Virus record (IMG/VR): IMGVR_UViG_2852743531_000003 | Location: 64,001-128,000 of that record | Reading direction: 5' to 3' (one strand) | DNA: 64,000 bases | From: a virus | Taxonomy: Duplodnaviria; Caudoviricetes | Part shown: positions 1 through 64,000 of the stretch, in pieces | Position numbering within the stretch: position 1 is the stretch's first letter | How the letters are laid out: every line of letters begins with the position of its first letter | Notes under the pieces: generated by a model | The model's input: the letters and a program-made list of their open reading frames with translations, nothing else | What the model was told of the DNA's origin: nothing | Databases searched by the model: none | Translations under genes and position numbers: made by a program

Positions 1-36
1 GAGCCGTCGGCCGCACCGCCCGAAGAACCCGTAAAT

Positions 37-3000
37 GTGGTGGACGAAACCAGTGCCGAGGCTGGCCCCGCCGGTGCCCACTTCGGTGATCAGGTCACCC
101 GGACCGTCCAGCAGCCGCAGCAGCTACCCGACTCGCCTGCGTTCCATGCGACGCATCCCAGGCAGGCGCACGACGATCAGGAGGACGAACGCGAAGAAGA
201 CAACGCCAGGGTCGGGCGCGTCGCCGCCCGCCTGGCCGTTGCCCAGCATGAACCCGATGAACGCGGCGTCGACATCCACCCTGATGAGGAACTGGAGCAG
301 CAGATCGAGGCCGACCTGCAGCAGCTCGAGCATATTGCTGGCCTCACGTTCTCCGACGAAGACACGACGGCCGGTCCGGCCGCACCAGCCGAAACAGCGG
401 CGCCAGCTGGCCCCCTGGCACCAGAAGACGCGGTCATGAAAATCGCCGACCGTCTGGCCGCGCAGGGCATGATGAGCGCCGGCGAACACCGGCGCTACCA
501 GACGCTCTCGCAGGCCTACAAAAAGATCGTTGCCCCGGATGGCAGGTCCACGCTCAGCGCCTTCGTCCAGATTCCGCCCGGGGACGTCCATATTGCCGAA
601 TCCCCCGCGATTACCGACATCCCCACGGTGCTCGACAAGACGATGCTCAGGTCGTCACTGCTCACCTTCGATCCGAAGTACATCAGGACCGTGATGCAGA
701 AGGACATCGCCGGCATGGTCCTGAACCTCCAGCACGCGGGGCTGTGTGTCACCGGCTATGACGTCGAGGATGTCGACGACGTCATGGGCGCATACCGGAT
801 CCATACCGCACGCGTGGTGCCTATCGAAGGTGCAGCTTCCACCCTTCGCTTCCGGCTGCCCGTCGTCGACGAGGACGGTACCTTCACCAGCAACGGCGTG
901 AAATACCGCATGCGCAAGCAGAAGGGGGACCTGCCCATCCGCAAGATCGCGCCGGGGCGCGTGGCGCTCACGAGCTATTACGGCAAGGTGTTCGTCTCAC
1001 GCTCGACGAAACGGGTCAACGACTATGCTACGTGGCTCACCAACGCCATCATGGCAGCCGGGCTCGATCCGCACGCCGGTCTGGTTACGCAGATGCATAC
1101 GGCGCCGGTGTTCGACAACCTCTTCGCGTGCCCACGCCTCTACAGCACGCTGGCCACGTCGTTCAGAAGTTTCCAGCTTGCTGGCTTCGAGTGGAACTTC
1201 GATCACACACGGCGCGAGACCCTCTATGGCACCGATACCCTGAGGCGCTACGAGCAACATGGTGAGCATGAAGGCGCCATCGTCTGCGGACAGTCGCTCA
1301 CCGACCCGGCCGCGCTGGCTGTCATGGACCAGCATGGCGCGCTGCGCGAAGTGCGAGAGGGCAAGGAACAGCCGCTGCCCACCTTCGAAGCGATGCTGCA
1401 GCTCGATGCCACAAAAGCGCCAGTCGATTTCGCCGAAGTGATGGTGCTCGGGCGCGCTATTCCGCTTGGTCTCGTGCTCGGCTACGAGATGGGGCTGGAG
1501 CCCCTCATGAAGCTGCTGCGCGTCACGCCGCGGCGCGTGCCCGCTGGCCAGCGTGTGAGCCTGCAGCCCGAAGAATATGCCCTGGTGTTCGCGGACGAAA
1601 CGCTCGTCTTTCCGAAGGCTAACACCTTCGCCTCGATGGTGCTCGCGGGCTTTAACGAATACCACCGCAGCATCCGCACCTTCAACGTTCACGAATTCGA
1701 CCGCCGCGGCGTCTACCTGAATGTGCTCGAGTCCGGCGGACAGTCGCAACGCTACCTGCGCGAGATCGACCTGCAGTACCAGCTCTTTGTCGACCCGATT
1801 ACGCGCGAGCTGCTCGTCGACATGAAGGAGCCCACGGACTATCAGGGACTGCTGCTGCGCGCCTGCGCGATGCTGCTCGCCGACCACCACCCCGACGAAC
1901 TCGATTCGGCCTGGATGCGCATCAAGGGCTACGAGCGCATGGCCGGTGCGGTCTATTCGGAAATCGTGCGCTCGATCCGGGTGCATCACGGCCGGCCCGG
2001 GAGAAACCGTCTGCCCATCGACCTGAATCCGTTCCAGGTCTGGAAGAACGTGACGCAGGATCCCGCCAAGCTCCAGATCTCGGAAATCAACCCGATCCAG
2101 AACATCAAGGAGATGGAAGCCGTTACCTATTCGGGTGTCGGCGGACGTGGCGCGCGCAGCATGGTCAAGCACACGCGAGCCTATCACCGCAACGACATGG
2201 GCACGATCTCCGAGGCAACGACGGACTCAAGCGATGTCGGTGTCAATACGTACACGAGTGCGGATCCCCAGTTCACGTCGCTGCGTGGCATCTCGCGCCG
2301 CTACGAGACAGGCAGGACCGGTGCCACCGCCCTTTTCTCGACGTCGGCGTTGCTTGCGCCGGCCGCCGACCGCGACGACCCCAAGCGGGTGAACTTCATC
2401 AGCATCCAGGGCAGCCACAAGATCGCCTGCCGGGGCTATCACCAGCCCGCGCTGCGCACTGGCTACGAGCAGGTGATCGCCCACCGGACCGGCGATATGT
2501 TCGCCGTGACGGCGAAAAAACCCGGCCGCGTGATCTCGGTCGGCCCCGAGGGGATGAAGGTCCAGTACGAGGACGGTGAAACCCAGGGCATCGAGCTCGG
2601 GCGGCGTTTTGGCAACGCGGCGGGTCTCGTTGTTCCCCACCAGATCAGGACGCAGATGCGCGCGGGCCAGACGTTCAGTCCTGGCGACGTAATCGCCTGG
2701 AACGAGGGTTTCTTCGAGCCAGACATCCTCAACCCCGCGAACGTCGTCATGAAAACCGGCGTCTCCATCAAGACGGTTTTCATGGAGAACCCGATGACGC
2801 TGGAAGACTCATCCGTCATCTCGAAGGAAACCGCGGCGCTCCTGATGACGAAGCAGACCCGGGTAAGAACCATCGTCATCAATTTCGACCAGGAGGTCCA
2901 CAAGCTGCGCAAGGTGGGAGACGAGGTTGGGTCCGACGATATTTTATGCGTCATTGAAGACGCTGTAACGGCTGGCAATCGCCTTTTTGATGAGGCATCG

Positions 3001-3498
3001 CTCGACACGCTACGCGTGCTGAGTGCGCAGACACCCCAGGCCAAGGCAAAGGGCGTCATTGAGCGCGTGGATGTGTTCTATCACGGTGAGGTCGAGGACA
3101 TGTCGCCGACGCTCGCGAAGATCGTGGCGACAACGGACGCGCAGATGATTCGCCGCGCGCGTGCAACCGGAAGGAAGGCCTTCACGGGAAGCGTTGACGA
3201 GGCGTTCCGGGTCGAGGGCAATCCGCTACAGCTAGACACAGCCGCGATCCAGATCTATATCACCTCGGATGTGCCGGCGGGCGTGGGCGACAAGGGCGTG
3301 TTCGGCAACCAGCTCAAGACCGTCTTCGGCGAGGTGATGGAGCGCGACATGTTCACCGAATCGGGTGTGAAGATCGGCGCCGTGTTTGGCGCCAAGTCGG
3401 TGGCCGACCGGATCGTCTCCTCACCCGAGCTCATTGGGACCACCACCACGGTACTCGACGTGATCGCGATGGCAGCGGTCGACCTGTATAGATCGTGA
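37..3498 (+). CDS. Virion RNA polymerase beta-like subunit (phiKZ gp178-like); true start probably upstream of the window
   Basis: >=1153 aa; beta-like motifs GTFTSNG, DRDDPKRVNF, LEDSSVIS and GDKGVFGNQLKT; frame is open to position 1; acidic N-terminal region. Confidence 0.88.
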   Translation: MVDETSAEAGPAGAHFGDQVTRTVQQPQQLPDSPAFHATHPRQAHDDQEDEREEDNARVGRVAARLAVAQHEPDERGVDIHPDEELEQQIEADLQQLEHIAGLTFSDEDTTAGPAAPAETAAPAGPLAPEDAVMKIADRLAAQGMMSAGEHRRYQTLSQAYKKIVAPDGRSTLSAFVQIPPGDVHIAESPAITDIPTVLDKTMLRSSLLTFDPKYIRTVMQKDIAGMVLNLQHAGLCVTGYDVEDVDDVMGAYRIHTARVVPIEGAASTLRFRLPVVDEDGTFTSNGVKYRMRKQKGDLPIRKIAPGRVALTSYYGKVFVSRSTKRVNDYATWLTNAIMAAGLDPHAGLVTQMHTAPVFDNLFACPRLYSTLATSFRSFQLAGFEWNFDHTRRETLYGTDTLRRYEQHGEHEGAIVCGQSLTDPAALAVMDQHGALREVREGKEQPLPTFEAMLQLDATKAPVDFAEVMVLGRAIPLGLVLGYEMGLEPLMKLLRVTPRRVPAGQRVSLQPEEYALVFADETLVFPKANTFASMVLAGFNEYHRSIRTFNVHEFDRRGVYLNVLESGGQSQRYLREIDLQYQLFVDPITRELLVDMKEPTDYQGLLLRACAMLLADHHPDELDSAWMRIKGYERMAGAVYSEIVRSIRVHHGRPGRNRLPIDLNPFQVWKNVTQDPAKLQISEINPIQNIKEMEAVTYSGVGGRGARSMVKHTRAYHRNDMGTISEATTDSSDVGVNTYTSADPQFTSLRGISRRYETGRTGATALFSTSALLAPAADRDDPKRVNFISIQGSHKIACRGYHQPALRTGYEQVIAHRTGDMFAVTAKKPGRVISVGPEGMKVQYEDGETQGIELGRRFGNAAGLVVPHQIRTQMRAGQTFSPGDVIAWNEGFFEPDILNPANVVMKTGVSIKTVFMENPMTLEDSSVISKETAALLMTKQTRVRTIVINFDQEVHKLRKVGDEVGSDDILCVIEDAVTAGNRLFDEASLDTLRVLSAQTPQAKAKGVIERVDVFYHGEVEDMSPTLAKIVATTDAQMIRRARATGRKAFTGSVDEAFRVEGNPLQLDTAAIQIYITSDVPAGVGDKGVFGNQLKTVFGEVMERDMFTESGVKIGAVFGAKSVADRIVSSPELIGTTTTVLDVIAMAAVDLYRS

Positions 3499-3517
3499 TG
3501 TCCCGGAGGGATGGACC

Positions 3518-3706
3518 ATGAAATCGCGGGAATCGGAAAAGACGCTCGTCACGCTCGCCAATGCCACGACGCTCGTGCGCTGCATCGTCCAGGGCGTAGT
3601 GGGCAACGATCTGGCCGACACCTTCGCCGGCGCGCCGCTGACGAACGACGTCATCGACCAGCTGGCCCAGGCCCGCTTTCAGGCGGCCGTTCAGCAATAC
3701 CTGTAG
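3518..3706 (+). CDS. Small hypothetical phage protein
   Basis: 62 aa ORF filling the gap between two co-oriented phage genes; GC3-rich codons. Confidence 0.65.
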   Translation: MKSRESEKTLVTLANATTLVRCIVQGVVGNDLADTFAGAPLTNDVIDQLAQARFQAAVQQYL

Positions 3707-3721
3707 AAGGGTCTCGCCATC

Positions 3722-5158
3722 ATGCTCAATGAACGCACCCTGCTCGCATCGCTCGCGCTGACCGAGCGGCTGGACGCGGCCGGCTTCGCTCTCCACCCGG
3801 TCGCGGGCACACCGCTCGCCGCCATGTGCGCGGCGACCACCTACGATACGGGACTCGCCCAGGTGCCGGACGGCAATTTCCAGACATATGCCACCCAGCT
3901 TGCGCAGAGAACCAGTCAGATCGATCCGCTCATGGACTGCTCCGAGCACGACGCGGTGCTCGATTCGATTGCGAACACCGCGATCGACGCAGTCAGGCGT
4001 CACGTCGCCTTTGCGCGCTCGGTCGTCGCACCCACAATCCAGAATCTCTACGAGCGCGTCAGGAACTCCGTCGAGAACCTGAGCGTCTCCTCCCTGCTCG
4101 GTCTTGAGGTGGAAGTCTGGCGCGAGCCAAAACCGGTGTTCAATACAGCGCTGCAAAGCGAGCTGCGCAAACTCGAAGACATCGCGCTCGATGATCCTCC
4201 CCTTTCCATGCGCATGCCCGACCTCACGATTGCGGAACTGATGGAGCTCATCAAGACCGGCAATGGCGGGCTTGACGCGGATATTGCCGAATGGGTCGCG
4301 ACCATTGGTGACGAGTTCTTCATGCAGGTCTGGCGCGACTTCTTCCAGCAGCACATGCCCGAAGATGGCGAGCGCAATCGCACCTTCACCGAGCGGGTGA
4401 CCGATCGTTTTACCGGCATGCCCGTCGCGCTCGCTGTCTACCTCCTTGCCCGCAAGCTACTCGACGAGAAGCCGCCTGAAGGTGTAGAGATGCCGCTGGC
4501 CAATTATCGTGCGCAGCTCGCCGGGTTCCGCAACCAGGCCGGCGGGGCGCTCACACGTGCGCTCGAGCGCATCGAGCGCGCGCTGAAAAATGGCCTTCTT
4601 GTCCGCGAGATCGCGGGCAGCAAGACCGTCGTCTACGAACCGGTCTACCGCGACTATCTGGAAAAAGGCGGCAGCAACGAAATGCTTTTCGCCAACGCCC
4701 TCTCGCGCCCTTTCATGATGTCCACCACCGATCTGCTCGAACACAAGAATGCACTCGCGAGCCGCTGGGCTACCCACAGCGCGCTGATCAGCACGGCAGA
4801 GTCCAACCAGCGTTACAACAAGGTCATCGAACTGCTGGAGCTGCATTTCCGTTCACAACTGAACGAAGCGACCGAAGGCGAAGACACCACGGCGCAGAAC
4901 CGCGACACGGTGCTCAAGCTTTTTCGCGACTGCCTGAAGCACGTCACGGAGAGCGATCTGAACGACCTGTACGCCGTATGCCTGAAGCTCGTGTGCCGGG
5001 CGAGGTTCTACACCACCGACGCCGAGCGCATCCTGACCGGCATGGAGCTTGCGAGGGCGCGCAATCCCTCACTCTCGCCGCGCGAAGCCGCCACGGCCAG
5101 TATCGTCGACTACATCGCCTGGTGGGTCGCCACGCAGATGCGGCTTGCGAGCTGTTAG
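3722..5158 (+). CDS. Conserved phiKZ-like protein (gp177-like by position)
   Basis: 478 aa, same codon bias as core genes, follows the vRNAP gene. Confidence 0.7.
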   Translation: MLNERTLLASLALTERLDAAGFALHPVAGTPLAAMCAATTYDTGLAQVPDGNFQTYATQLAQRTSQIDPLMDCSEHDAVLDSIANTAIDAVRRHVAFARSVVAPTIQNLYERVRNSVENLSVSSLLGLEVEVWREPKPVFNTALQSELRKLEDIALDDPPLSMRMPDLTIAELMELIKTGNGGLDADIAEWVATIGDEFFMQVWRDFFQQHMPEDGERNRTFTERVTDRFTGMPVALAVYLLARKLLDEKPPEGVEMPLANYRAQLAGFRNQAGGALTRALERIERALKNGLLVREIAGSKTVVYEPVYRDYLEKGGSNEMLFANALSRPFMMSTTDLLEHKNALASRWATHSALISTAESNQRYNKVIELLELHFRSQLNEATEGEDTTAQNRDTVLKLFRDCLKHVTESDLNDLYAVCLKLVCRARFYTTDAERILTGMELARARNPSLSPREAATASIVDYIAWWVATQMRLASC

Positions 5159-5919: not shown

Positions 5920-6209
5920 ACTAGCCTCCTAATCTCAGCAGCAAACACTCGTGGCCGATAGAACTACCGGCGTGACTTTAGCATCCCCGGCCCAGTAACA
6001 CCGTGTTGTCCCTCCTTCTCGATATTGGACGGGATAACCCGAGCTCAACTGGAGGCCTCCCGCGCGGCGGTGCAAGCAAGTGTGTATCCGGGTCGGCATC
6101 AGTCCATCAACCCGCGAAATTCCTGTATTGCAGCGCAACTGCGGCAGCTGACATCAAACCGGAATGCAGACTCACTCTTTTTATATCGCGACAGCTCGCA
6201 GAGGGTGCG

Positions 6210-6935
6210 ATGGACCCGAAACACCTGGTACGCGACCCCGAGCGGGTCAGGAACGCCCTCGTGGAAACACCGGACGGCAAACTGGTGGCCCGGGATACCG
6301 TCAGGATCTACATCCCGGCCCGATTTGCGGAGCGGGGACTCGCCGAGGTTGGTATTGAAACATTCATCTACGGCGTCTATGCCATCACGGTCGAAGACAG
6401 CTACTACGGCGTCTCGCTCGTGAACGCCATGATCCGCATCGAGCCGACTTCCATGATGAAGATGCTCATCGGTGAGGACGAATACTACGAGTTTGAATTT
6501 GAGAAAGGCGCGGTCATCACGCCCTCGCTGAACCTGGTCAAGAACGATGCACTCGTCTACCGGATTTTCAACGAGATGCTCGCCGGTGCCCATGTGCCCT
6601 GGTACATCGGCTATAACGAAATGGCGTGCCTGCTCGACAGCGCGAAGTATCACGCCGGCGCCAATGTCGGTCGAAACCACGACATCACGGAGCTGCTTGT
6701 GTCGATCGTCTCGCGCAATCCGCACGATCGCCACGAGTTCTATCGTACGGTGGTGAAGGGGCAGCACGACCTGCTAGCCAACCCACCCGTTTTCATCCCC
6801 CTGCGTTCGATTGAATTCGCGGCCACCAGTGCGCTGAACAAGGTCGCGGGCAGCTATTTCAGCCGCGGCGTCGTCAGCGCGCTCGTGAGTCCCAGTACAC
6901 GCGTCGAGCGGCTCAATGACATTCTCGCCCGATAG
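6210..6935 (+). CDS. Conserved phiKZ-like protein (gp176-like by position)
   Basis: 241 aa from ATG 6210 (GAGGG RBS); lies between the gp177-like gene and the protease gene once cargo is ignored. Confidence 0.7.
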   Translation: MDPKHLVRDPERVRNALVETPDGKLVARDTVRIYIPARFAERGLAEVGIETFIYGVYAITVEDSYYGVSLVNAMIRIEPTSMMKMLIGEDEYYEFEFEKGAVITPSLNLVKNDALVYRIFNEMLAGAHVPWYIGYNEMACLLDSAKYHAGANVGRNHDITELLVSIVSRNPHDRHEFYRTVVKGQHDLLANPPVFIPLRSIEFAATSALNKVAGSYFSRGVVSALVSPSTRVERLNDILAR

Positions 6936-6940
6936 CCGCC

Positions 6941-7634: not shown

Positions 7635-9332
7635 TTATCGGCGGCTGCCGGGCACCTCGCGCTCCCCCAGCACCGCGCCCTTTGAAAGCGGTTGTACCAG
7701 TTGCCGGTACATGGCAAGCCAGCCCTTTTCCTGGGTCGGCGGCAGCGGCGGCAGTGCAGCCATTCTTTCCCTGAGCACGGCGTCCGACAGTTCGAGGTCA
7801 ATCGTCTTGCGGTTCAGGTCGATCACAATCGTATCGCCGTTCTGTATTGCGGCAAGCGGGCCACCTTCGGCCGCCTCTGGCATCACCTGCCCGATCGTGA
7901 TGCCGCTGTTCAGGCCGGAGAGTTCACCATCGGTCACGACCGCAACGGACTCGCCCAGTCCCGCGCCCACGAGCGCTGCCATGAAACTCGCGGCAAATAC
8001 GGTGCCGGGTCCCCCCTTCGGGCCAAGCATACGCAGTACCACGACTGAACCGCGCTCGATTTTACCCTGCTCGATCGCATTAATCGCATCGTTCTCGTTT
8101 TCGTACACGGCCGCCGGGCCGATGAAACGCCGCACGCTCGCGGGCACCGCGGACAGCTTGACGATCGCCCCGTCGGGGGCCACATTGCCGCGAATGATGA
8201 CGAGGCCGGGCTCCGGGCGCATCGGTTGCGCCAGCGGCGCAATCACGCGTTCGTCCGGCGCGGGCTGCCCGGCCAGATTGTCGGCGAGGGTCCTTCCCGT
8301 CACGGTCAGCACCGACGTATCGAGCACGCTCGCAAGCTGCTTCATCGCACCCGCGCAGCCGCCGGCGGCCGCGAAGTCCTCGATGCGGTCCGGCCCGTTC
8401 GGGCGCACCTTCGTGATCTGCGGGACCAGGTGCGCGGCGAGTTCGAATTCGCGGATGATGTCGACATCGCACTCCGACTCGATCGCCGCGGCGATCAGGT
8501 GACGCATCACATTGACCGACGCGCCGATCGCCACTGCCACTCGCACCGCGTTGCGGAACGCGGCCGCCGTCATGATCTGCCGGGGCCGAAGATCCTGTTC
8601 GACCAGGGCCATGATCGCCTTGCCGGCGCTCGCAGCATACCCGTTGAGCTCGTCGCTGCCCGCGCGGATGGGCGCATTGCCGGTCAGCGCCATACCCAGT
8701 GCCTCGGCCATGCAGTGCATCGAGTTTGCCGTCGCGAGTCCCGCGCATACCCCCGGCCCCTTGATCGCATGACAGGTCATGTCGGTCAGTTTCTCGAGCG
8801 TGATCGTACGGGCCTTGTATGCGCCCACCGATTTATAGACTTCCTCGATATCAACGTGGTGGTCGCCGCACTGCGAGCCCAGCTGGAAGCCGCACGTCAC
8901 GATCAGCGACGGTACGTTGAGCCGGCCGGCCGCCATCAGCTGTGCCGGCGTGGTCTTGTCGCACGACGCAAGCAGCACCATGCCGTCGAGCTCGGCACCT
9001 TCAACCTGCACCTCGACGTCGTTGACGAGCAGATCGCGGGTCGGCATCAGGTAGCGGCCCTGCTTGCCCGCGCTGGTCACGAAATCGGACGGGGCAACCG
9101 TGCGGATTTCAAGCGGCACGCCGCCTGCGGCACGCACGGCGTCCTGCACGACCTGGGACACGCCGTCGAGATGCTGATAGCAGACCGACAGCTTGCTCGA
9201 CGAGTTCACGATCGCGATCTTCGGCTTTTCGAAATCCTCTTCGGACAGACCCATCGCGAGCCATTGCGCACGGCGCACGGCCCAGCGCGTGGTTCCAGGC
9301 GTAAAGCTGCTGCGGAGTTTCGGCTTGTTCAT
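7635..9332 (-). CDS. IlvD/Edd-family dihydroxy-acid or sugar-acid dehydratase
   Basis: 565 aa; SCDKTTPA, GPGVCAGLATANSM, GNVAPDGAIVK, GPKGGPG and PEAAEGGP family motifs. Confidence 0.93.
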   Translation of the reverse strand: MNKPKLRSSFTPGTTRWAVRRAQWLAMGLSEEDFEKPKIAIVNSSSKLSVCYQHLDGVSQVVQDAVRAAGGVPLEIRTVAPSDFVTSAGKQGRYLMPTRDLLVNDVEVQVEGAELDGMVLLASCDKTTPAQLMAAGRLNVPSLIVTCGFQLGSQCGDHHVDIEEVYKSVGAYKARTITLEKLTDMTCHAIKGPGVCAGLATANSMHCMAEALGMALTGNAPIRAGSDELNGYAASAGKAIMALVEQDLRPRQIMTAAAFRNAVRVAVAIGASVNVMRHLIAAAIESECDVDIIREFELAAHLVPQITKVRPNGPDRIEDFAAAGGCAGAMKQLASVLDTSVLTVTGRTLADNLAGQPAPDERVIAPLAQPMRPEPGLVIIRGNVAPDGAIVKLSAVPASVRRFIGPAAVYENENDAINAIEQGKIERGSVVVLRMLGPKGGPGTVFAASFMAALVGAGLGESVAVVTDGELSGLNSGITIGQVMPEAAEGGPLAAIQNGDTIVIDLNRKTIDLELSDAVLRERMAALPPLPPTQEKGWLAMYRQLVQPLSKGAVLGEREVPGSRR

Positions 9333-9341: not shown

Positions 9342-10691
9342 TCAGTTGGTAAGTTGTGCACCATCGCGATTCAGGAGCACGCGAACGTCGGCTCCATCGA
9401 GCCGACGCACGTCGATATGTTCGTTCACTGCAAGCGCCGCGGCGTGTCCTATTGCGTGCCCATACGAGAAGCACTGCGCGGTCACGCGCGCCGACGCGAC
9501 GGCTTCGTGCTCAGCCGACAGGCAGCGCCCGGCCACCAGCAGGTTCGTCCCGGACTCGGGTACGAAGCAGCCGAACGGAACCTCGTAGTAGTCGTTGAGC
9601 AGCCACTCGACACGCGGCTTGCTGCCGCTGTGCAGCTCGATCGGCCACGGCGAGCGCGCGATGCCATCACGAAATTTCGTGCCTGCGAGAATGTCCACAT
9701 TGCGCAGCGTGCTGACACCGGCCACCTGACGTGTCTGCCGCACGCCGACCTGCACGCCGGTATCGATGACGAAGCTCGCTTCGCAGCCGGTCAGATAATC
9801 CCGGAAGAAACGCGCGTATTCGCGGACCTGCAGACGGCCCTCGAATTCGGCCTCGGTAAAGTCGCGATGGATCACCGGATTCAGTTCGCGCCCATCGGCG
9901 CCCGTCACGCGCGTGCAGTTGCACAGCAGCTCGCCGGGCTGCGGCGTCGGAAAGAGCCAGATCTTGCCGCGCGGCAACCGGTAGCCCCGTGTGTTGGCTT
10001 GCGCGATCTGCTCCGAGACAGACGGCGGCATGATCGTGTCTGCGCCATACGCCTGAAGGAAACGGGCCACATCGACGCCGCCCAGCCGGAAGATCATCGT
10101 CGGGTTCTGCACGCGGCCGTTGTCGCCAATGGTCGTGCCGAGACCCGCCATGGACACGAGATCCGCATCGCCGCTGGCATCGATCGTCAGCGGCGTAAGC
10201 ACGCGCACCTTGCCCTGCCCGGTATGGAGCTGCGCGCCGCGGATTGCATCGCCCTCCTTCAGCACATCGGTTACCGTCGCGTGATAGATAACCGTCACGC
10301 CGGCATCGCGCAGCATCGCGTCAGCGACCTCCCGCCACACCAGCGGGTCGTGCACAAGCGTCCACGTCTTGCCGTATTTGACCGGCGCGCCAAGTCCGTT
10401 GCGCGCCCTCATCCGCGCGATGAAGTCATCGACGAAGCCGTGTACGACCTGCGTCGGGCCCGCCCCTGATTCCGTTGCCTCGTACAGTCCGCACACCGTG
10501 CCTGATAGGCCGGCGACGGCCCCACCACCGCAGAAGCCGTAGCGCTCTGCGAGCACAACGCGCAAGCCGTTTTTCGCGGCGGTAACTGCGGCCGCAAGCC
10601 CGGCGGCGCCACCGCCCGCGACAAACAGGTCGGCGTCAATTGTCTCCCTCACGCGGTCGTCGACGACCGCCATACCCATGAACTCGCTCAT
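9342..10691 (-). CDS. FAD-dependent oxidoreductase
   Basis: GGGAAGLAAA Rossmann motif, IDASGDADL, NLLVAGRCLS; GGAGGAG RBS before ATG 10691. Confidence 0.9.
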   Translation of the reverse strand: MSEFMGMAVVDDRVRETIDADLFVAGGGAAGLAAAVTAAKNGLRVVLAERYGFCGGGAVAGLSGTVCGLYEATESGAGPTQVVHGFVDDFIARMRARNGLGAPVKYGKTWTLVHDPLVWREVADAMLRDAGVTVIYHATVTDVLKEGDAIRGAQLHTGQGKVRVLTPLTIDASGDADLVSMAGLGTTIGDNGRVQNPTMIFRLGGVDVARFLQAYGADTIMPPSVSEQIAQANTRGYRLPRGKIWLFPTPQPGELLCNCTRVTGADGRELNPVIHRDFTEAEFEGRLQVREYARFFRDYLTGCEASFVIDTGVQVGVRQTRQVAGVSTLRNVDILAGTKFRDGIARSPWPIELHSGSKPRVEWLLNDYYEVPFGCFVPESGTNLLVAGRCLSAEHEAVASARVTAQCFSYGHAIGHAAALAVNEHIDVRRLDGADVRVLLNRDGAQLTN

Positions 10692-10714
10692 CTCTCCTCC
10701 ATCACAATCCATGG

Positions 10715-10749
10715 TTGACACTTTAGATATGGTGGCGATACTCTGTCAA
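10715..10749. promoter_or_regulatory. Overlapping divergent sigma70-type promoters
   Basis: + strand TTGACA(10715-20)-16 nt-GATACT; - strand TTGACA(10749-44)-18 nt-TAAAGT; lies between the divergent oxidoreductase and MFS genes. Confidence 0.6.
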
Positions 10750-10804: not shown

Positions 10805-12136
10805 ATGAGATTACGTGTGGGCTATCGATGGATCATTGCGGTAGTACTGTTTATTGCGTACAGCATCCAGTATCTCGATCGCGTGAAAAGCAGCGTCCTG
10901 AACCCGGCGATCGCGCACGACATCGGCCTCACCACGGCTGACATCGGAACCGGCGCATTCCTGATGCTGCTGTTCTACGGACCGGCGCAGTACGTGTCAG
11001 GGCTGCTGACTGACCGCTTCGGCGCAAAGAAGATGCTGATTTTTTCGGTGGTGGCGTGGTCGGTGATGACCATGTTCATGGGGCTGATCCAGACGCGCGA
11101 TGAATATCTGTGGCGGATGGCGTTATTCGGCGTACTGGTCGGCACGGAGTACGTGCCGTCGGCTCGCGTGCTGATGCGCTGGTTCAACAAGGAAGGGCGG
11201 GCCCGCGCGCAATCGGTGCTGGCCTGGGCGTGGATCCTGACGCCGGCATGGGCGAGTGTGCTCGCGACACAGTTTGCCGCACATGCGAACAGCTGGCGTA
11301 TCGTTTTCTTCGTCACCGGTGCGCTTGGTGTCGTCCCCCTGCTGATGATCATCCTGTTCGTGTACGATCGGCCAGAGCAGTATCGTCATGCAACCGAGGC
11401 CGACCTCGAATACGCGTACCGTGACGAGCTCGAGGCGGGCACGATCCGGCGTGGGGAATATGCGTCAGCGCAAAAGACGATCCTGAAGGCAAGTAGTGTC
11501 CGCTTCCTCGATTTGTTCAAGAATCCTACCTACGTCGCCGTCATCTTTGTCGATATCGTGATGCAGATCACGCTATATGGTGCACTGGTCTGGATTCCGC
11601 TTTATCTTTCCGACACCTTCGGCTTCAAGCTGCAGACGATGGGCTGGTGGAGCAGCCTGTATTTTGCGGCGGGCGCGATCGGCAGCTTCGTGTCGTCCTG
11701 GCTGTCGGACAAGGTCTTCAGGGGCAACCGGAAGATCATGATCCTCGTGTGCTTCATCGGTCTCGCACCGTTTGTCGTTCTGCTCGGCACGCTGCAGCAC
11801 GCGAATCACATGCTGCTTGCGGTGGCGCTGTGTGGCATGGGCTTCTTCGGCAACATGGCATGGGGGCCGTTCCTCGCGCTGCCGGCGGAGATTTTCACGC
11901 CTGAGGTCTACGGAAAGGCGATGGGCTTTGTGAACGGCGCCGGCTATTTCGTTGCCGCATTCTCGGCGAAAATCTTTGCCGCGCTGGTGATGGTCGATGC
12001 ACTGGGCCACAAGGACTACACCTACGGGTGGTACTTCATCGCACTTTGCGTGGTGGCCGGGATCGTGGCGGCCAGCAGGATCAGGTCGACGCGCAAACCG
12101 GATCAACGGGTGAAGCAGGTGGCGGCGAGTCTTTAG
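10805..12136 (+). CDS. MFS transporter (anion:cation symporter-like)
   Basis: 443 aa, about 12 hydrophobic segments, YLDRV and GLLTDRFGAKK motif A. Confidence 0.93.
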   Translation: MRLRVGYRWIIAVVLFIAYSIQYLDRVKSSVLNPAIAHDIGLTTADIGTGAFLMLLFYGPAQYVSGLLTDRFGAKKMLIFSVVAWSVMTMFMGLIQTRDEYLWRMALFGVLVGTEYVPSARVLMRWFNKEGRARAQSVLAWAWILTPAWASVLATQFAAHANSWRIVFFVTGALGVVPLLMIILFVYDRPEQYRHATEADLEYAYRDELEAGTIRRGEYASAQKTILKASSVRFLDLFKNPTYVAVIFVDIVMQITLYGALVWIPLYLSDTFGFKLQTMGWWSSLYFAAGAIGSFVSSWLSDKVFRGNRKIMILVCFIGLAPFVVLLGTLQHANHMLLAVALCGMGFFGNMAWGPFLALPAEIFTPEVYGKAMGFVNGAGYFVAAFSAKIFAALVMVDALGHKDYTYGWYFIALCVVAGIVAASRIRSTRKPDQRVKQVAASL

Positions 12137-12179: not shown

Positions 12180-12250
12180 AGCGGGTGAAGGGAATCGAAC
12201 CCTCATCGAGAGTCCGGCATGGCTCTACCCTATCCCTAGGCTACACCAGC
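12180..12250 (-). pseudogene. Degenerate tRNA-Gly-like sequence
   Basis: 71 nt GCTGGTGTAG...GAGGGTTCGATTCCCTTCACCCGCT; intact T-arm, 6/7 acceptor pairs, central GCC, poor D and anticodon arms, no CCA. Confidence 0.6.
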
Positions 12251-12532: not shown

Positions 12533-13288
12533 ATGACCAACTATGTGCGCTTTGGCCTCACGGCACTGAACGGCATGAACAAATCGGGCACCCTCAAGCC
12601 CGACGCCAACGGCTACTATCCCGTGGTCCTCGGCGGGTTGAACATGTTCAACTCGGTCAACCAGTACTACCCCTACGAGCCGGCCAGGGAGTTTTTCGAG
12701 GGTTCCAGCCAGTTCATGCGGCGCGTGCATTCCGGCAACCTGCGCGGCGAATATGGTCATCCGCGACGTTTGCCTGGCCAGAACATCGAAGATTACGCCC
12801 GGCGCATTCTCGATATCGACGTCAACAACGTTTCGCATCATATTGCCGAAGTCACGCTCGATTTCGAAAACTACAAGGACCCCGAAGGTCGCAACATCAT
12901 CGCGATCCTCGGACAGGTCAAACCTTCCGGCCCCCAGGGCGCCCATCTGAAAAACTCGCTCGACAACCCGAAGGAGAACGTGTGCTTCTCGATACGCTCC
13001 TTCACGCTTGACGTGCCAGTCGGGCGCACCGTGCGGCGCGAGCTCAGGAACGTGGTGACGTGGGACTACGTCAACGAGCCGGGGCTTTTCATCGCGAGTA
13101 AATTCAATTCGCCCGCGCTCGAGGAAATTGACGAGGCAATGTTTTCCAGGCCGCAGCTGGATCGCGCAGTCGCTGCGGCAAACGCCACGAATATCGGCAT
13201 GGAATCAGCCCAGCTGACCCTGGACGATCTCTATCAGTCGCTTGGATGGCTCACCGAAACCGTCACCCCGCCGTGGCTCGGATGGTAA
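12533..13288 (+). CDS. Prohead maturation protease (phiKZ gp175 / T4 gp21-like)
   Basis: GEYGHP, NVSHHI, CFSIRS and TWDYVNEPG motifs; C-terminal ALE/GME candidate self-cleavage sites. Confidence 0.88.
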   Translation: MTNYVRFGLTALNGMNKSGTLKPDANGYYPVVLGGLNMFNSVNQYYPYEPAREFFEGSSQFMRRVHSGNLRGEYGHPRRLPGQNIEDYARRILDIDVNNVSHHIAEVTLDFENYKDPEGRNIIAILGQVKPSGPQGAHLKNSLDNPKENVCFSIRSFTLDVPVGRTVRRELRNVVTWDYVNEPGLFIASKFNSPALEEIDEAMFSRPQLDRAVAAANATNIGMESAQLTLDDLYQSLGWLTETVTPPWLGW

Positions 13289-20111: not shown

Positions 20112-20129
20112 GGTTGTGATCCTGAAATG

Positions 20130-20172
20130 AAATGCTATGGCTGGAAAGCGATGCGGCGCATCATATAAATTT
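20130..20172. promoter_or_regulatory. Divergent putative late promoters (AAAT..TATG)
   Basis: + strand AAATGCTATG 20130-39 and - strand AAATTTATATG 20172-62, between divergent structural operons. Confidence 0.45.
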
Positions 20173-20258
20173 GTGCGCTTCGTAATCCTCAGTAATTCAC
20201 GCGATACGGCATCGCGGGTCACAGGGCGGGCCGTTTCTTCTGGACGAGGGCGTGGAGA

Positions 20259-21215: not shown

Positions 21216-21282
21216 GCGCCGCCCCCTTGCCCAGGCTTCGTTTCTGTCGCCCTTCGCGACGCTCTTTGTCCGGGATACGAGC

Positions 21283-25653: not shown

Positions 25654-25720
25654 CGGACACAGAGCCGGCATGCGGCCCCCTCCCCTGCGAGGGAGGCAAG
25701 CCTCAAGCGGAGGCGACCAG

Positions 25721-49394: not shown

Positions 49395-49459
49395 CTCATT
49401 GTCATTAGCAGGACTGCTAAGGACCACATGTGTGTTTAACCCAATCGCAAGGAAAAGCC

Positions 49460-51680: not shown

Positions 51681-53180
51681 GTGGCAATCAGTTCCCGACT
51701 CGTCAGTCACGATGAGATCTTTCATTACCGTACGTCGCGCGAACCCATCATCATCAATGATCTTCCCGACATCACCAGCGAAGAGAAGGAGCACGTCGAT
51801 AACCTCATATTCACCCGCTACGATCTCATCCACTCGGATTCTCTCTCGAACATCCCGTCGTGCGCATGCGGCAACACCCTCGGCGTCGACAAGCTTGGCG
51901 ACGGCCGCGGCGTTCCTGCGATGGTCTGCCCCGACTGCCACACCGAGGTCACCGCCCCCTACCAGGGCGATCTGGAGCCGCTCATCTGGCTGCGTGCGCC
52001 AAGAGGCGTCAAGGCGCTCATCAACCCGCATGTCTGGACCATGCTGCGCGAGGGATTCCAGAAGAACAGTTTCGATGTGATCCGGTGGCTCTGCGATCGC
52101 ACCTGGAAAGCACCAGTCAGGGAACCGCCGGTGATGGAGGCGATCCGCTCATCGGGACTGCCACGGGGCTACAACAACTTCGTGGAGAATTTCGACGCCA
52201 TCATGGCCTTCCTGTTCAACCTGAAGGACTACGCGAAGAAGGAGCTCGCGCCCCTCAAGGCGTGCCTCGAGCAGTACCGGCACTGCGTCTTCTCGCAGTA
52301 CCTGCCACTACCAAACCGGTCGCTGCTGGTGCTCGAAGACACGCATCACGCGGGCTACACCGACAGCACGACGCCCATCGCGGTGGACGCCATTCGCATG
52401 ATGGTGGGAATTGATTCCCCGATGTCGCCTCACTCGGACATCGTGCGCGAGAACCGCACCATCCGCATGATTGCCCAGACGGCTGAATACTACGACATCG
52501 CCATACGTGACCTGCTTGCGTCGAAGACCGGCGTGTACCGCAAGAACATGTACGGCACGCGCTGCCACTTCGCGTTCCGGGCCGTCATCAGTTCGTACAC
52601 CGACCCGCACGACTATACCGGGGTGCATATCCCGTGGAGCGTCGGCGTCGTCGTGTTCGAGTTGCATCTGAAGAATTTCCTGCTTCGCGAAGGCATGACG
52701 CCGTGGGAAGCCGAGACCTATCTGAACGCGCACGTCAATCAGTACAGCGAGAAGCTTGACCACTTCTTCCAGCGGATCATCGCGGGTTCGCGCGGGCCAG
52801 GTGTGCCGGTGACCATGCAGCGCAACCCGAGCCTGCACCGCGCAAGTATCCAGCTGCTCTTCATCACGCGCGTCACCACCGACGTGAGCGTGCCAACCGT
52901 CTTCTTCAGCATTCTCGATGTGACCGGGCCGAATGCCGACTTCGACGGCGACATGATGAATCTCGTGCTGACGCTCGATCACGTACTGACCGACGAGCTC
53001 TACAGCCTGATGCCGCATCAGAGCACCTTCAGCATGAACGAGCCGCGTGCCCTCTCGAAGAATCTCTCGATGCCGAAGACCGTCGTGCTCACGATCAGCA
53101 ACTGGATCCACTGGCCGGAACCCGATACACCCGATCCAGAAGTGCTGCGGCGCATGGCACTTATCCCCGAAGCTGCCTGA
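51681..53180 (+). CDS. Non-virion RNA polymerase beta'-like N-terminal subunit (phiKZ gp55/56-like)
   Basis: 499 aa; CxC..CPDC zinc finger, RNPSLHR and catalytic NADFDGD. Confidence 0.92.
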   Translation: MAISSRLVSHDEIFHYRTSREPIIINDLPDITSEEKEHVDNLIFTRYDLIHSDSLSNIPSCACGNTLGVDKLGDGRGVPAMVCPDCHTEVTAPYQGDLEPLIWLRAPRGVKALINPHVWTMLREGFQKNSFDVIRWLCDRTWKAPVREPPVMEAIRSSGLPRGYNNFVENFDAIMAFLFNLKDYAKKELAPLKACLEQYRHCVFSQYLPLPNRSLLVLEDTHHAGYTDSTTPIAVDAIRMMVGIDSPMSPHSDIVRENRTIRMIAQTAEYYDIAIRDLLASKTGVYRKNMYGTRCHFAFRAVISSYTDPHDYTGVHIPWSVGVVVFELHLKNFLLREGMTPWEAETYLNAHVNQYSEKLDHFFQRIIAGSRGPGVPVTMQRNPSLHRASIQLLFITRVTTDVSVPTVFFSILDVTGPNADFDGDMMNLVLTLDHVLTDELYSLMPHQSTFSMNEPRALSKNLSMPKTVVLTISNWIHWPEPDTPDPEVLRRMALIPEAA

Positions 53181-55223: not shown

Positions 55224-55826
55224 ATGAAACCATCTACTGAAACCCCCGCTTCACCCGACGCCCACCCGGGTGACTTCATCAATACGGTGGCGCAGAACCT
55301 GCATGAGATCGCCAGCCAGGACGTCGCCAAACTGCCCGAGGACCAGTTCGTCCACGTTTTTCTGCCGCTGCTCGCACGCGATGCCGAACTGCCGTATCCC
55401 GTCACCATGGCCGACTGGATCTCCATTGCCGGTGGCCCCTGCAAGCCGGTCGACGTGTTCGACAACGCAACGGGCCAGACGCTGTTTCGCGTCCCCCCCT
55501 TCCTCGACTACCACGGCATCAATCCCGTCAGGGACATCCACAACCGCGCTGCTGGCCAGGCCGCCTTCACCGACATCGTCGCGACTGCCGCGAAACTTGC
55601 GGGACTGCACCCGAATCAGGCGAAGGCGTTTATCGAGCAGTCACTACGTGAGCGCGCCAGTTTCATGAACAACACCGCGGTGCTCGCGCTCCATGTTCTT
55701 CAGTGGAACGCCATTCTCGGGCGCTACGGTCGCGAACCGTTGTACGCCGAATCAGAAAAGGCGGCCGGCGCTGCGCTCGCCGCTAAGGGCGGCCCCGTTA
55801 CTCCCGACGTGTATGAGGACTTCTGA
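55224..55826 (+). CDS. Conserved chimallivirus protein
   Basis: 200 aa; LPE..FV..FLP..WISIAGG..LFRVPP segment. Confidence 0.75.
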   Translation: MKPSTETPASPDAHPGDFINTVAQNLHEIASQDVAKLPEDQFVHVFLPLLARDAELPYPVTMADWISIAGGPCKPVDVFDNATGQTLFRVPPFLDYHGINPVRDIHNRAAGQAAFTDIVATAAKLAGLHPNQAKAFIEQSLRERASFMNNTAVLALHVLQWNAILGRYGREPLYAESEKAAGAALAAKGGPVTPDVYEDF

Positions 55827-56928
55827 TATCCATCTCGCGGTTGCCAGCGACATCCATCTCGGCAACCGGCGCACGCCTACGCAAGGCATCCTGCGCAACC
55901 TGCGGGCCGCCTTCCCCGATAACGAAGAAACGGCACAGCTGGACGTGATCTGTCTGGCAGGCGATGTCTTTGACACCCTCTTCCCGCTCAACGATGAAGA
56001 TGTGCCGCAGATCGACTTCTGGATCCGCGATCTGCTGCTGCTCTGCAAAAAGCACGACATCATCCTGTACGTGCTGGAGGGTACACGCAGTCACGACTGG
56101 GAGCAGTCGGCACGCTTTGTCACGATCAATGAGATCGCCGGCATCAACGCCAGACTCAGATATGTGCGCGAGATCAGCATCGAGTATGAACCAGCTCTCG
56201 ATCTCTGGATCGGGTTCGTACCAGATGAGGCCACGCCCGACACCGACAGGACGCTCAGCGAATTCCGCAGCCTGATGAAGGCAAAGGGGATCGGGAAGGT
56301 CGACCTGATGTTCATGCATGGTCACTTCGAGTTCCAGCTTCCGGCGGCCGCGCGCGTACCGAAACACGATTCAGCCGCGTGGCTGGCGATTACACGTTAT
56401 CTGGCGTTCATTGGTCACAACCACCGGCATTCATCCTTCGACCGCATCTACGCGCAGGGCTCCTTCGACCGGTACTCACACGGACACGAAGAGCCGAAAG
56501 GTCACCTGAGGGCGGTGTTGCATACCTCGGGAGACCATGAAGTCACCTTTATCGAAAATACCGGCGCGCGTCTGTACATCACGATCGACTGCACCGACCT
56601 TGATGTGGAAGCCGCATTACGCGCAATTGACGGGCGTGTTCGCGAGCTGCCAGAACATTCTGCGGTTCGCATCCAGGCCATGCATGACCATCCACTGCTC
56701 GCAGACATGGACGCGCTCATCAGGCTTTATCCGTTCTTCAGCTGGAGCAAGCTTCCGGTTCGTCCCGACGAGGAAGAGCGCAAGGCTTACGACGACAGCG
56801 AGGTCTTTGAACCCGTCACCATTCATGCCGGCAACATCCTGCAGCTGCTCACGGAACGCATGATCGCCTCGGGCGTGAGTCCAACGGTCGTCGCCGTCGC
56901 ACAACAGAAAATCCAGGAGGCTATGTGA
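55813..56928 (+). CDS. sbcD: SbcD/Mre11-like metallophosphoesterase nuclease
   Basis: SDIHLG, AGDVFD, EGTRSHD, MHG and GHNH motifs. Confidence 0.87.
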   Translation: MRTSDIHLAVASDIHLGNRRTPTQGILRNLRAAFPDNEETAQLDVICLAGDVFDTLFPLNDEDVPQIDFWIRDLLLLCKKHDIILYVLEGTRSHDWEQSARFVTINEIAGINARLRYVREISIEYEPALDLWIGFVPDEATPDTDRTLSEFRSLMKAKGIGKVDLMFMHGHFEFQLPAAARVPKHDSAAWLAITRYLAFIGHNHRHSSFDRIYAQGSFDRYSHGHEEPKGHLRAVLHTSGDHEVTFIENTGARLYITIDCTDLDVEAALRAIDGRVRELPEHSAVRIQAMHDHPLLADMDALIRLYPFFSWSKLPVRPDEEERKAYDDSEVFEPVTIHAGNILQLLTERMIASGVSPTVVAVAQQKIQEAM

Positions 56929-61875: not shown

Positions 61876-61948
61876 ATCCGGCCTGATCCCAAACCAGAAA
61901 CCTGACACTCACAGAGCGGGAGCGCGAGAAGCGCTCCCGATTCAATCC

Positions 61949-63316: not shown

Positions 63317-63389
63317 GTCCGTAACGAGGATGGAGAGGGGAGCCCTTTCTCCATTTCTCCCTTGGAAGGATCTTTACGAAGGATAGCTA

Positions 63390-63638
63390 ATGATAAAAAT
63401 GCTGGATCGTGCCCAGGCTGAAGCCGCCTTCTCAGCCATGGTCGCGATGAACAACGTCTGCGGCACCGTTCACGTCCGCATGGGACTCAAGGATGACGGC
63501 CACCTGCATGTTGCCGAGCACAGGGATGGCCGCGTTCACGTGTACATCCGGGGATCGACCAGCCGCTACCGCGTAGGTACCTCTGAATGCTACACAAGCC
63601 AGAACGCCTTCGCGAAAGCCTACGGCCTTGAGGACTGA
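63390..63638 (+). CDS. Hypothetical protein
   Basis: 82 aa, AAGGA RBS. Confidence 0.7.
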   Translation: MIKMLDRAQAEAAFSAMVAMNNVCGTVHVRMGLKDDGHLHVAEHRDGRVHVYIRGSTSRYRVGTSECYTSQNAFAKAYGLED

Positions 63639-63684
63639 CCCCCTCCTCTTCCCAACAGCTTCATTTAACGAACAGGAACACAAG

Positions 63685-63942
63685 ATGAATGTAAGGCAAT
63701 CCGACCCACGACTGACCCATTTCATCGTCGTGGACGGCGGCGAGTGGGGAAAGGGCACGACACTTCTGGCGGCAGCGAGTGCACGTCCGTACTCGAAGGA
63801 CAGACCCATAGGTCGTGCGGCACAGGCCTGGCGCGTTTGCGCGGACGCGCACATTACCGACGAAGGCCAGATCGCGTATCCCACGGGTCAGGCACGTCCC
63901 CTTCGTGTCGATGTCAGGACTGGAGAACCGGTCCCGGAATAA
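63685..63942 (+). CDS. Hypothetical protein
   Basis: 85 aa, AGGA RBS. Confidence 0.6.
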   Translation: MNVRQSDPRLTHFIVVDGGEWGKGTTLLAAASARPYSKDRPIGRAAQAWRVCADAHITDEGQIAYPTGQARPLRVDVRTGEPVPE

Positions 63943-64000
63943 GGAAGTCTGGCAGCCTCAGCCCCCTCTGCCAGGAGGGGGCGAGATGGACTAACCGCTC

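Follow-up and report, generated by a model that had tools for sequence, protein, structure and literature searches.

Chimallivirus Core Genes in the Window

We analyzed a 64,000-nucleotide stretch of viral DNA (hereafter, the window), which is positions C1:64001-128000 of the 140,992-bp IMG/VR record IMGVR_UViG_2852743531_000003 (C1), a record of the class "provirus" with a CheckV completeness of 53%. The window carries the core genes of a chimallin-encoding jumbo phage, and the same record carries, to the right of the window, a plasmid-type rep-parB-parA cassette; the element that holds both is the subject of this work. Window positions are given as plain numbers and are obtained by subtracting 64000 from the record position. 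Open reading frames (ORFs) were called with a crude caller based on the GC content of third codon positions (GC3), which gave 129 ORFs in the record and 60 in the window. The record ends on gene boundaries, with the ATG of one ORF at position 1 and the TGA of another as its final three bases, so that it was almost certainly excised from a longer contig.

The phage genes of the window are listed below with their best supporting matches. Comparisons are to FLC9 (LC667451.1; 321,833 bp; host Burkholderia glumae), a lytic phage that is the closest sequenced one, and to two contigs from Paraburkholderia genomes, C5 and C11 (G001:C5 and G543:C11), which are described further on. Identities are of amino acids unless noted otherwise, and the ratio of nonsynonymous to synonymous substitution rates (dN/dS) refers to the record against C5.

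1..3498, plus strand: RNA polymerase beta-type subunit, large (ORF start C1:63071, 1475 amino acids; phrog_3148, 1357 bits; 52% to FLC9 gp40; dN/dS 0.088)
3722..5158, plus strand: chimallivirus conserved protein, function not given by its family (phrog_3841, 1e-73; FLC9 homologue, 39%)
6003..6935, plus strand: virion structural protein (phrog_2926, 1.6e-79; FLC9 homologue, 57%)
12533..13288, plus strand: prohead protease, Peptidase S80 of the phiKZ type (PF20034, 2.6e-76)
16959..17933, minus strand: tail tube (PF23806, 5e-110; 99.7% to C5, dN/dS 0.008)
18006..20222, minus strand: tail sheath, phiKZ gp29 type (PF20961, 7e-41; dN/dS 0.069)
21043..23925, plus strand: DUF7193 protein (PF23823, 2.5e-258; kept in FLC9, C5, and C11)
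23944..25653, plus strand: virion structural protein (phrog_3430, 1.5e-164; intact here, orthologue cut by an insertion sequence (IS) in C5)
25670..27967, plus strand: terminase large subunit (phrog_2, 1.2e-49; 56% to FLC9; dN/dS 0.074)
34274..35503, minus strand: conserved chimallivirus protein (phrog_2921, 1e-135; the top identity to FLC9, 67%)
36695..37498, minus strand: DUF7484 protein (PF24302, 4e-78; kept in FLC9, C5, and C11)
38510..39529, plus strand: PhuZ-like tubulin (phmmer against the PDB: 9pm9, 3.8e-25; phiKZ TubZ 3zbp, 3e-17; PhuZ201, 5e-12; Pfam Tubulin and TubZ_C_2 matches under cut-off)
45347..47548, plus strand: divergent family B DNA polymerase (PF20286, 2.5e-228)
49430..51508, plus strand: chimallin (PF25677, 73 bits, cut-off 27; phmmer to the solved chimallin/PhuN chains 7sqt, 4e-14, and 8fne, 2e-15)
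51681..53180, plus strand: RNA polymerase beta-prime-type subunit fragment (PF00623, Rpb1 domain 2; phrog_2987, 1.3e-135)
55693..56928, plus strand: SbcD-like nuclease subunit (phrog_100, 7.9e-52)

The original prediction for this DNA, which was made from the letters alone, had named chimallin, PhuZ, RNA polymerase pieces, terminase, tail genes, protease, and polymerase, and the profile and PDB searches confirm all of these calls. Chimallin, the split multisubunit RNA polymerases (Rpb2 domain 6 was found just outside the window), and the phiKZ-type virion module place the element in the Chimalliviridae, as judged from sequence. The major capsid and portal genes lie outside the record.

A Plasmid-Type Rep and Partition Cassette inside the Phage Backbone

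The rep-parB-parA cassette and a RelB-like ORF are found in the same record, 7.7-13 kb past the window (C1:135.7-141.0 kb) and inside the phage backbone.

C1:135755-137005, minus strand: Rep candidate (416 amino acids; tblastn homologues in PLSDB)
C1:137257-138276, minus strand: ParB (ParB_N, HTH_ParB, and TIGR00180 matches under cut-offs; dN/dS 0.073)
C1:138249-139451, minus strand: ParA (400 amino acids; AAA_31, 3e-38; TIGR03453 full-length, 213 bits, under cut-off)
C1:140651-140992, plus strand: RelB-like ribbon-helix-helix ORF, the last gene of the record (NF048017, 37 bits, cut-off 50)

ParA aligns over its full length to plasmid RepA/SopA-type ParA models and is 66% identical to the ParA of a Caballeronia megaplasmid and 98% identical to that of C5 (dN/dS 0.026). 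Among phage records, the best 25 ParA matches, beyond which 159 more records follow, are N15-, PY54-, and phiKO2-type phage-plasmids and similar elements at 28-35% identity, with no jumbo phage among these 25. The Rep candidate has tblastn matches in 121 PLSDB records at 47-59% identity, the best of them (58%) to genes annotated as "Replication protein O", and all but four of these records are from Burkholderiaceae, the rest being Delftia, Comamonas, and Diaphorobacter. In the Atlas, too, the closest cluster has this name (score 0.99), which we take as a lead only. A search of 50,697 phage records returned no homologue of the Rep candidate, and the gene order parA-parB-rep is that of NZ_CP084262.1. 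Of 86 compared stretches with a ParA homologue (80 genome loci, the record, C5, C11, and three contigs of the Caballeronia genome G571), 55 have a Rep homologue within 6 kb. We treat rep as a candidate initiator gene on the strength of its plasmid homologues, the names given to them, and the shared gene order; ParA and ParB supply the partition system that is expected of a phage-plasmid.

A repeat search of the rep/par region gave no convincing origin, iterons, or parS. Upstream of parA, however, four copies of a motif that contains GGGCAGG lie at C1:139,736-140,610, within the 1.2 kb that separate parA from the RelB-like gene, and they are candidates for parS or iterons. Conservation with C5 extends over the first 247 bp upstream of parA. 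No toxin partner of the RelB-like gene was found, and the ORFs that follow it in C5 are without family.

Misassembly had been named as a finding that would undo the idea of a resident phage, and the junction between phage and plasmid genes was examined on this point. An identical 102,264-bp contig is present in two public runs, which may be the record's own source and are not independent; it contains C1:128001-140992 at contig positions 33,843-46,834 with 0 differences and runs a further 55,430 bp beyond the record end. Because this single contig crosses the phage/plasmid junction with 0 differences, the junctions are real.

Related Elements Carry the Cassette in the Same Slot

The search for related strains, which had been proposed as a check on the prediction, turned up a cassette of this kind at the matching position of four other elements and probably of a fifth, for six elements in all, one of them probable. 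One is C5 (284,264 bp, Paraburkholderia adhaesiva ZD32-2), which a ParA search of species-representative genomes brought up at 98% identity. Its stretch 49,737-185,495 runs collinear with C1:831-140979, and the 28 blastn pieces of at least 300 bases are 66-88% identical. The FLC9-like backbone of C5 extends over 49.6-266 kb, and Rep, ParB, and ParA lie inside it at 179.4-183.1 kb, with FLC9-like genes to either side (176.6-178.1 and 194.4-196.5 kb). Exactly five contigs make up the assembly, four of them of 3.38 Mb, 1.91 Mb, 909 kb, and 493 kb and the smallest being C5, and C5 contains one Rep and one ParA of this type; KfrA_N and AbiJ proteins adjoin its par genes.

C11 (286,074 bp, Paraburkholderia) is a more distant relative with a chimallin of 36-40% identity, and 132 of the 271 C5 ORFs have a match in it. 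Its ParA, ParB, and Rep are 46, 45, and 51% identical to those of C5 and occupy the same slot. It lacks a 68-kb insert that C5 carries and looks like a plain jumbo phage with the cassette added, 142 of its 301 ORFs matching FLC9. In the Caballeronia genome G571, a chimallin-encoding contig (C275) stops right after the genes that precede rep, and an 11.6-kb contig of the same genome carries the end of the last pre-rep gene followed by rep, parB, and parA in the expected order, so that the cassette is probably in the same slot, split over two contigs. Two further members come from IMG/VR. G643 is a "provirus" of 138,880 bp (52% complete) with a ParA of 98% identity in the same slot, and it ends about 8 kb past parA. 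G644 is a metagenome genome of 278,988 bp with direct terminal repeats and a CheckV completeness of 100%; the cassette is again in the same slot, and its ParA, ParB, Rep, and chimallin are 90, 84, 61, and 37-45% identical to those of the record.

The 68-kb insert of C5 sits at the two contig ends. The backbone edges that flank it (266.2 and 49.6 kb) are neighbors in C11 (191.3 and 190.7 kb) and about 6 kb apart in FLC9, which indicates that the two end portions are one insert in a circle. Gene order likewise carries on across the ends of C11 when followed along C5, an agreement in order only, as the end DNA has no counterpart. A Pfam search on 49 ORFs of the insert found type VI secretion system (T6SS) components (TssA, TssF, TssG, TssK, TssM, VipA, VipB, a ClpV-like ATPase, and VgrG) together with aldehyde dehydrogenase, KdgT, PdxA, enolase-superfamily and GMC enzymes, MFS transporters, porins, and LysR regulators. 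The left end of the record maps to about 49.6 kb in C5, which is the insertion point of this block, and the right end to about 185.5 kb, which is cargo by the par genes. Record ends at such sites would explain marker-based trimming there and why half a genome was left. Both IMG/VR "provirus" members (record, 53%; G643, 52% complete) end within a few kilobases beyond the par genes, which suggests that marker-based provirus callers mis-trim such genomes systematically.

The three full-length elements (284,264, 286,074, and 278,988 bp) agree in size to within 2.5%, although one holds 68 kb of cargo and another about 70 kb of small ORFs. Near-equal sizes in three elements are suggestive of a headful packaging limit.

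A quick maximum-likelihood tree of 85 ParA sequences pairs the record with C5 (support 100) as sister to a large group of Burkholderiaceae megaplasmids (support 91), and another group holds a second pair, made up of C11 and the G571 contig (92% identical, support 100). G644 has a C11-like backbone, yet its ParA is 90% identical to that of the record. It follows that the slot is old and that its cassette has been traded with resident plasmids, a trade that incompatibility pressure would favor.

Purifying Selection on Phage and Partition Genes

Reciprocal best pairs between the record and C5 that aligned over at least 70% of their length (85 of 89) were compared by the NG86 method, which supplies the dN/dS analysis of core genes that had been proposed alongside the prediction. 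The median dN/dS is 0.116, with 77 of the 85 pairs below 0.3 and a maximum of 0.75; dS is mostly 0.6-1.1, which makes these estimates rough. The Rep candidate has a value of 0.33. Purifying selection acts on phage and partition genes alike. In the shared block, 105 of the 129 C5 genes have a tblastn match in the record, and 0 are split over two frames. The claim of an intact core thus stands for the genes in view, none of the 105 orthologues being split, and it is a judgment on about half a genome (CheckV, 53%).

Comparison with Known Phages and Plasmids

C1:613-134454 is collinear with FLC9 from 87.7 kb down to 1 and then from 321.8 down to 297.3 kb, and 65 of the 129 record ORFs (31 of the 60 in the window) have collinear matches at 22-67% identity. 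Like the record, FLC9 has genes for chimallin, for a PhuZ-like tubulin, for RNA polymerases, and for virion proteins. It differs in that it has no match to Rep, ParB, ParA, the catabolic cassette, or the VgrG island (the latter two are described below), and in that nothing but small ORFs lies in its slot, which is between gp368 and gp360-361. Parts of the record that have no equivalent in FLC9 include the catabolic cassette and the VgrG island as well as the stretch around a SET-domain gene and everything to the right of C1:134,454. A megablast search of 24 kb against phage records gave no similarity.

Classical phage-plasmids depend on the host RNA polymerase and are not known to form a nucleus. 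Those of the P1, N15, PY54, phiKO2, and SSU5 types combine a phage genome with a plasmid initiator, ParAB, and addiction modules and are kept outside the chromosome; the present element resembles them in its ParAB and probably also in the other respects. The phage-plasmids among the listed ParA matches are 42-60 kb in size vs about 280 kb here, and the present element, unlike them, encodes multisubunit RNA polymerases of its own as well as chimallin, the shell protein, and PhuZ. Its cassette is also of the Burkholderiaceae megaplasmid type and not of the P1 or N15 type. The megaplasmids and chromids of this family, such as those of Caballeronia sp. SL2Y3 (NZ_CP084262.1) and C. insecticola (NC_021289.1), share the gene order, with identities of 66% for ParA and 54-58% for Rep, and their parA-parB-rep module is often at or near position 1 of the plasmid record. 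They differ in being bacterial plasmids of 0.24-2 Mb, and tblastn with chimallin found no relative in 72,556 PLSDB records; chimallin as a lone query found none in IMG/VR either.

Chimallivirus genomes have been seen in bacterial assemblies before. Two papers (bioRxiv 10.1101/2024.12.31.630880; PMC12768965) report many such genomes, in the hundreds, in assemblies of Enterobacteriaceae isolates, and both interpret them as lytic phages in a persistent or carrier-like infection. In the first, 373 phages were screened with plasmid replication and partition profiles, which yielded 15 ParB and one Rop, all without a cognate partner such as ParA (10.1101/2024.12.31.630880). The Seoulvirus, Goslarvirus, and "Bapsvirus" phages described in the two papers are similar to the present element in being chimallin-encoding jumbo genomes that form separate contigs in isolate assemblies and persist with the host; they differ in being read as non-temperate, in having a lone ParB only, and in having Enterobacteriaceae hosts. 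The word "Burkholderia" occurs 0 times in the main texts of 10.1101/2024.12.31.630880 and PMC12768965, whose supplementary tables could list other hosts. In a 2026 review of jumbo phages (PMC13282480) and a 2025 survey of chimallin/PhuZ phages (PMC12625630), the terms temperate, lysogen, plasmid, phage-plasmid, and partition occur 0 times, and PMC7412058 mentions a ParB-like nuclease only. Our full-text literature search returned no described chimallivirus with a plasmid replicon, with the limit that supplementary tables could list other hosts.

Bacterial Cargo between the Core Genes

The window contains two blocks of bacterial genes and a single SET-domain gene.

7635..9332, minus strand: IlvD/Edd-family dehydratase, sugar-acid type (PF00920, PF24877)
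9342..10721, minus strand: FAD-dependent oxidoreductase (PF12831, 5.6e-117)
10805..12136, plus strand: MFS transporter, divergent from the oxidoreductase (PF07690, 2.5e-62)
12180..12250, minus strand: tRNA-like gene with an odd anticodon loop (ARAGORN tRNA-???; Rfam RF00005, 35.1 bits, gathering score 29)
28633..31101, plus strand: type VI secretion spike VgrG (Phage_GPD, T6SS_Vgr, DUF2345; TIGR01646, 196.6 bits, cut-off 121.8)
31098..32450, plus strand: putative peptidoglycan-hydrolase effector (start overlaps the vgrG stop; GC3 0.47)
32447..32974, plus strand: small ORF, candidate immunity protein (from its position after the effector only; GC3 0.47)
44772..45206, minus strand: SET-domain protein (PF00856, 75.5 bits; 83% to C5, dN/dS 0.116)

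The catabolic cassette (4.5 kb) occurs as a single collinear block of 77-82% nucleotide identity in 3 of 213 Paraburkholderia species genomes, a tally that includes one genome flagged as unpublished (G218), on which nothing rests. Its dehydratase falls in the dihydroxy-acid dehydratase subfamily of NCBIfam, under the equivalog cut-offs, and has no counterpart in FLC9 or C5. The tRNA-like gene is at the right edge of the cassette, outside the block common to Paraburkholderia chromosomes.

The second block is a VgrG island. GC content per 2 kb is 52-65% with a dip at 30-34 kb of the window, and GC3 is 0.75-0.82 in core genes, about 0.65 in the plasmid-module genes, and 0.47 in the effector candidate and the small ORF after it. 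The VgrG is 65-68% identical to VgrGs of Paraburkholderia chromids. We considered whether it might be the phage's own tail spike and rejected this, as the slot is empty of VgrG in FLC9, C5, and C11, the domains are T6SS-specific, the nearest relatives are the chromid VgrGs, and low-GC3 genes come next. The effector candidate has no Pfam, PHROG, or NCBIfam match of its own. Its 114 homologues are mainly Burkholderia and Paraburkholderia hypothetical proteins, one of which is named "lysozyme family protein", and distant homologues carry LysM, PG_binding, or PF01374 domains; a peptidoglycan-hydrolase function is plausible given the lysozyme-named homologue and those with LysM or peptidoglycan-binding domains. 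The small ORF belongs to no Pfam or NCBIfam family. The 102,264-bp contig described above starts within vgrG, at about window position 30159 (C1:94,159), and near-identical vgrG copies elsewhere in the genome may have broken the assembly graph there.

Bacterial modules had been proposed to sit between the core genes, and this applies to the catabolic cassette and the VgrG island. The SET gene, which had been counted with them, is common to the closest relative, C5, and is therefore cargo of the lineage and not private to the record; the C5 orthologue has no match in FLC9 or C11. To the left of the window, C1:48787-51944 holds two large low-GC3 ORFs (0.52-0.57), one with an N6/N4 DNA methylase domain, neither with a counterpart in FLC9 or C5, and an additional N6 methylase-like ORF lies at C1:10361-11581.

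A Probable Phage-Plasmid Lifestyle and Its Alternatives

These findings support the notion of a chimallivirus lineage of roughly 280 kb, related to FLC9, that is kept in Paraburkholderia- or Caballeronia-type cells as a low-copy circular plasmid, and we regard such a phage-plasmid clade as the probable explanation. A lifestyle of this kind has not been described for this phage family. Whether the clade is truly temperate in the manner of a plasmid, with an exchangeable rep-parAB, with T6SS, catabolic, and anti-phage cargo that pays its way, and with a retained switch to a lytic cycle in a chimallin nucleus, seems to us evenly balanced. The original prediction had proposed long-term residence as a prophage or a phage-plasmid. 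The phage-plasmid half gains from the rep-parB-parA cassette, from the slot being kept in relatives, and from C5, the fifth replicon of a five-contig isolate assembly, which has acquired a host IS, an insert with three recombinase genes, and a T6SS cluster (see below), whereas the prophage half loses ground, as no tyrosine integrase was found in the record, C11, or G644.

In the resting state, Rep would fire a plasmid origin with host replication proteins, ParB and ParA would segregate the copies of the element, and the RelB-like module, together with KfrA in a relative, would add stability. The host RNA polymerase would express the cassette and the cargo, that is, the sugar-acid-type catabolic operon, VgrG with its putative peptidoglycan-hydrolase effector, and the DNA methylases, as well as a full T6SS and AbiJ in the relative. 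The lytic programme (phage RNA polymerases, chimallin shell, PhuZ spindle, and virion genes) would stay silent under a switch of some kind, and induction would have to start from a naked resident episome, with no injected virion RNA polymerase.

Several observations weigh against this explanation. The Rep candidate, on which replication as a plasmid would depend, falls short of every curated Pfam and NCBIfam threshold and is without a relative of solved structure; Pfam gives PadR and HVO_A0261 below threshold only, NCBIfam gives nothing, and PDB matches are at chance level (E 0.49). No repressor or lysis/lysogeny switch was identified. Cargo expression by the host polymerase had been argued from sigma70-like promoters at two or more cargo modules, and this part of the prediction is weak, since promoter-like sites at the cargo are not above chance: the catabolic region has 2 (vs 1.5 ± 1.2 in shuffles), both scoring 10/12 and both in the 84-bp divergent intergenic region, and the VgrG island has 7 (vs 3.7 ± 2.3), none of them directly upstream of vgrG. 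There is no consensus sigma70 site upstream of parA either. Well-supported branches of the ParA tree force at least two origins for the ParA in the slot, which points to cassette exchange and not to simple vertical descent. G643 has one tyrosine recombinase match (35.4 bits) about 5.5 kb from its par genes. The elements are also rare: among species genomes, those with a chimallin number 2 of 213 in Paraburkholderia, 1 of 69 in Caballeronia, and 0 of 94 in Burkholderia, and a family sample of 400 genomes had it in the C5 host only. Presence in an assembly is no evidence by itself, because chimalliviruses without plasmid genes are known there. Finally, the IS in C5 means that C5 may no longer make virions, and the record is about half a genome, an exact 32-base pattern from its right end having no match in the metagenome_contigs or genome_contigs sets.

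The IS in C5 bears on a rival explanation, in which the element is a phage-derived megaplasmid, a former chimallivirus that now makes no infectious virions and whose phage genes are leftover or repurposed. In C5, a 1,289-bp host IS with an rve-type transposase cuts the orthologue of the virion structural gene at 23944-25653, which is otherwise conserved, at about codon 133; at least 24 more full-length copies of this IS, at 100% identity, are on the other four replicons. The cargo of C5 fits a plasmid as well: 68 kb of T6SS and catabolic genes, KfrA, AbiJ, and a 3.7-kb insert, not in the record, with three adjacent tyrosine recombinase genes (C5:57,743-60,125), which we take to resemble a "recombinase in trio" mobile element. 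This interruption concerns that one element, and the low dN/dS of 77 of the 85 pairs, which include sheath, tube, terminase, protease, and RNA polymerases, speaks against leftovers. No shared gene of the record is split over frames, G644 is complete with terminal repeats and comes from a metagenome, and three full-length elements have near-equal sizes as if they were still packaged. We consider this explanation unlikely. The host IS standing in the assembly sequence of C5 speaks at the same time against a second rival, persistent or carrier-state infection by a virulent chimallivirus of the kind described for Seoulvirus and Goslarvirus, in which rep and par would merely prolong carriage or serve the lytic cycle. 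The hundreds of chimallivirus genomes in isolate assemblies that were read as persistent infections (10.1101/2024.12.31.630880, PMC12768965) are a precedent, a plasmid and a carried phage would look alike as a separate assembly contig, and the search that found no repressor also favors this case. The phages screened in the first of these papers had a lone ParB without ParA (10.1101/2024.12.31.630880), whereas a full rep-parB-parA cassette is conserved here under strong constraint and is accompanied by large cargo of benefit to the host, and a carrier state is, in our estimate, quite unlikely.

Two further readings concern the nature of the record itself. It could be an integrated prophage with true host DNA on both sides, as its "provirus" class says; both ends are exactly on gene boundaries, and the DNA runs at least 55 kb past the right end. 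A search for tyrosine integrases (PF00589; serine recombinases were not searched) found none in the record, C11, or G644. Moreover, the record ends map to cargo islands of C5 that are within one replicon (about 49.6 and 185.5 kb), with phage genes resuming at 194.4 kb, only about half of the backbone is between these ends, and the relatives are stand-alone contigs of 279-286 kb. The label may have arisen because a marker-based trimmer took plasmid and bacterial cargo for host DNA, and we hold a prophage to be very improbable. The other reading, a lytic phage that was fused in assembly with DNA of the host or of a plasmid, could cite that the cargo and the plasmid module differ in GC3 from the core genes, but it is harder still to credit: the same phage/plasmid junctions recur in at least five independent records or assemblies, a single 102-kb contig passes over the junction with no difference, and the cargo islands are between collinear core genes.

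To our knowledge, chimalliviruses are treated as strictly lytic, which is one of the reasons that they are favored for phage therapy and as model systems for the phage nucleus. For part of the family, a backbone that includes a plasmid replicon would undo this assumption. If the phage-plasmid explanation is true, the clade would represent the first temperate lifestyle in the Chimalliviridae and a new route by which bacterial gene blocks of 50-70 kb travel in phage capsids, and it would show that jumbo phages move whole secretion systems and metabolic operons between bacteria. It would also raise a mechanistic question, namely how a genome that is normally protected by a shell and transcribed by its own RNA polymerase is silenced, copied by host enzymes, and reactivated. 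Since the carrier, Paraburkholderia adhaesiva ZD32-2, is a cultured strain, the proposal is testable now. Virus-calling pipelines halve such genomes and assign the label "provirus", and further examples may therefore have gone unnoticed.

Additional Observations

Of all core proteins, chimallin differs by far the most between the record and C5. It is 58-60% identical to the C5 protein with a dN/dS of 0.385 (30% to FLC9), while neighboring core genes are 85-99% identical with values of 0.01-0.12, and G643 combines a ParA of 98% identity with a chimallin of only 50%. Chimallin may be under diversifying pressure or may have been swapped between lineages. Outside the window, at C1:38112-38798 on the minus strand, the record has an NlpC/P60 peptidase ORF without a counterpart in FLC9, which could be a lysis or tail-associated peptidoglycan peptidase.

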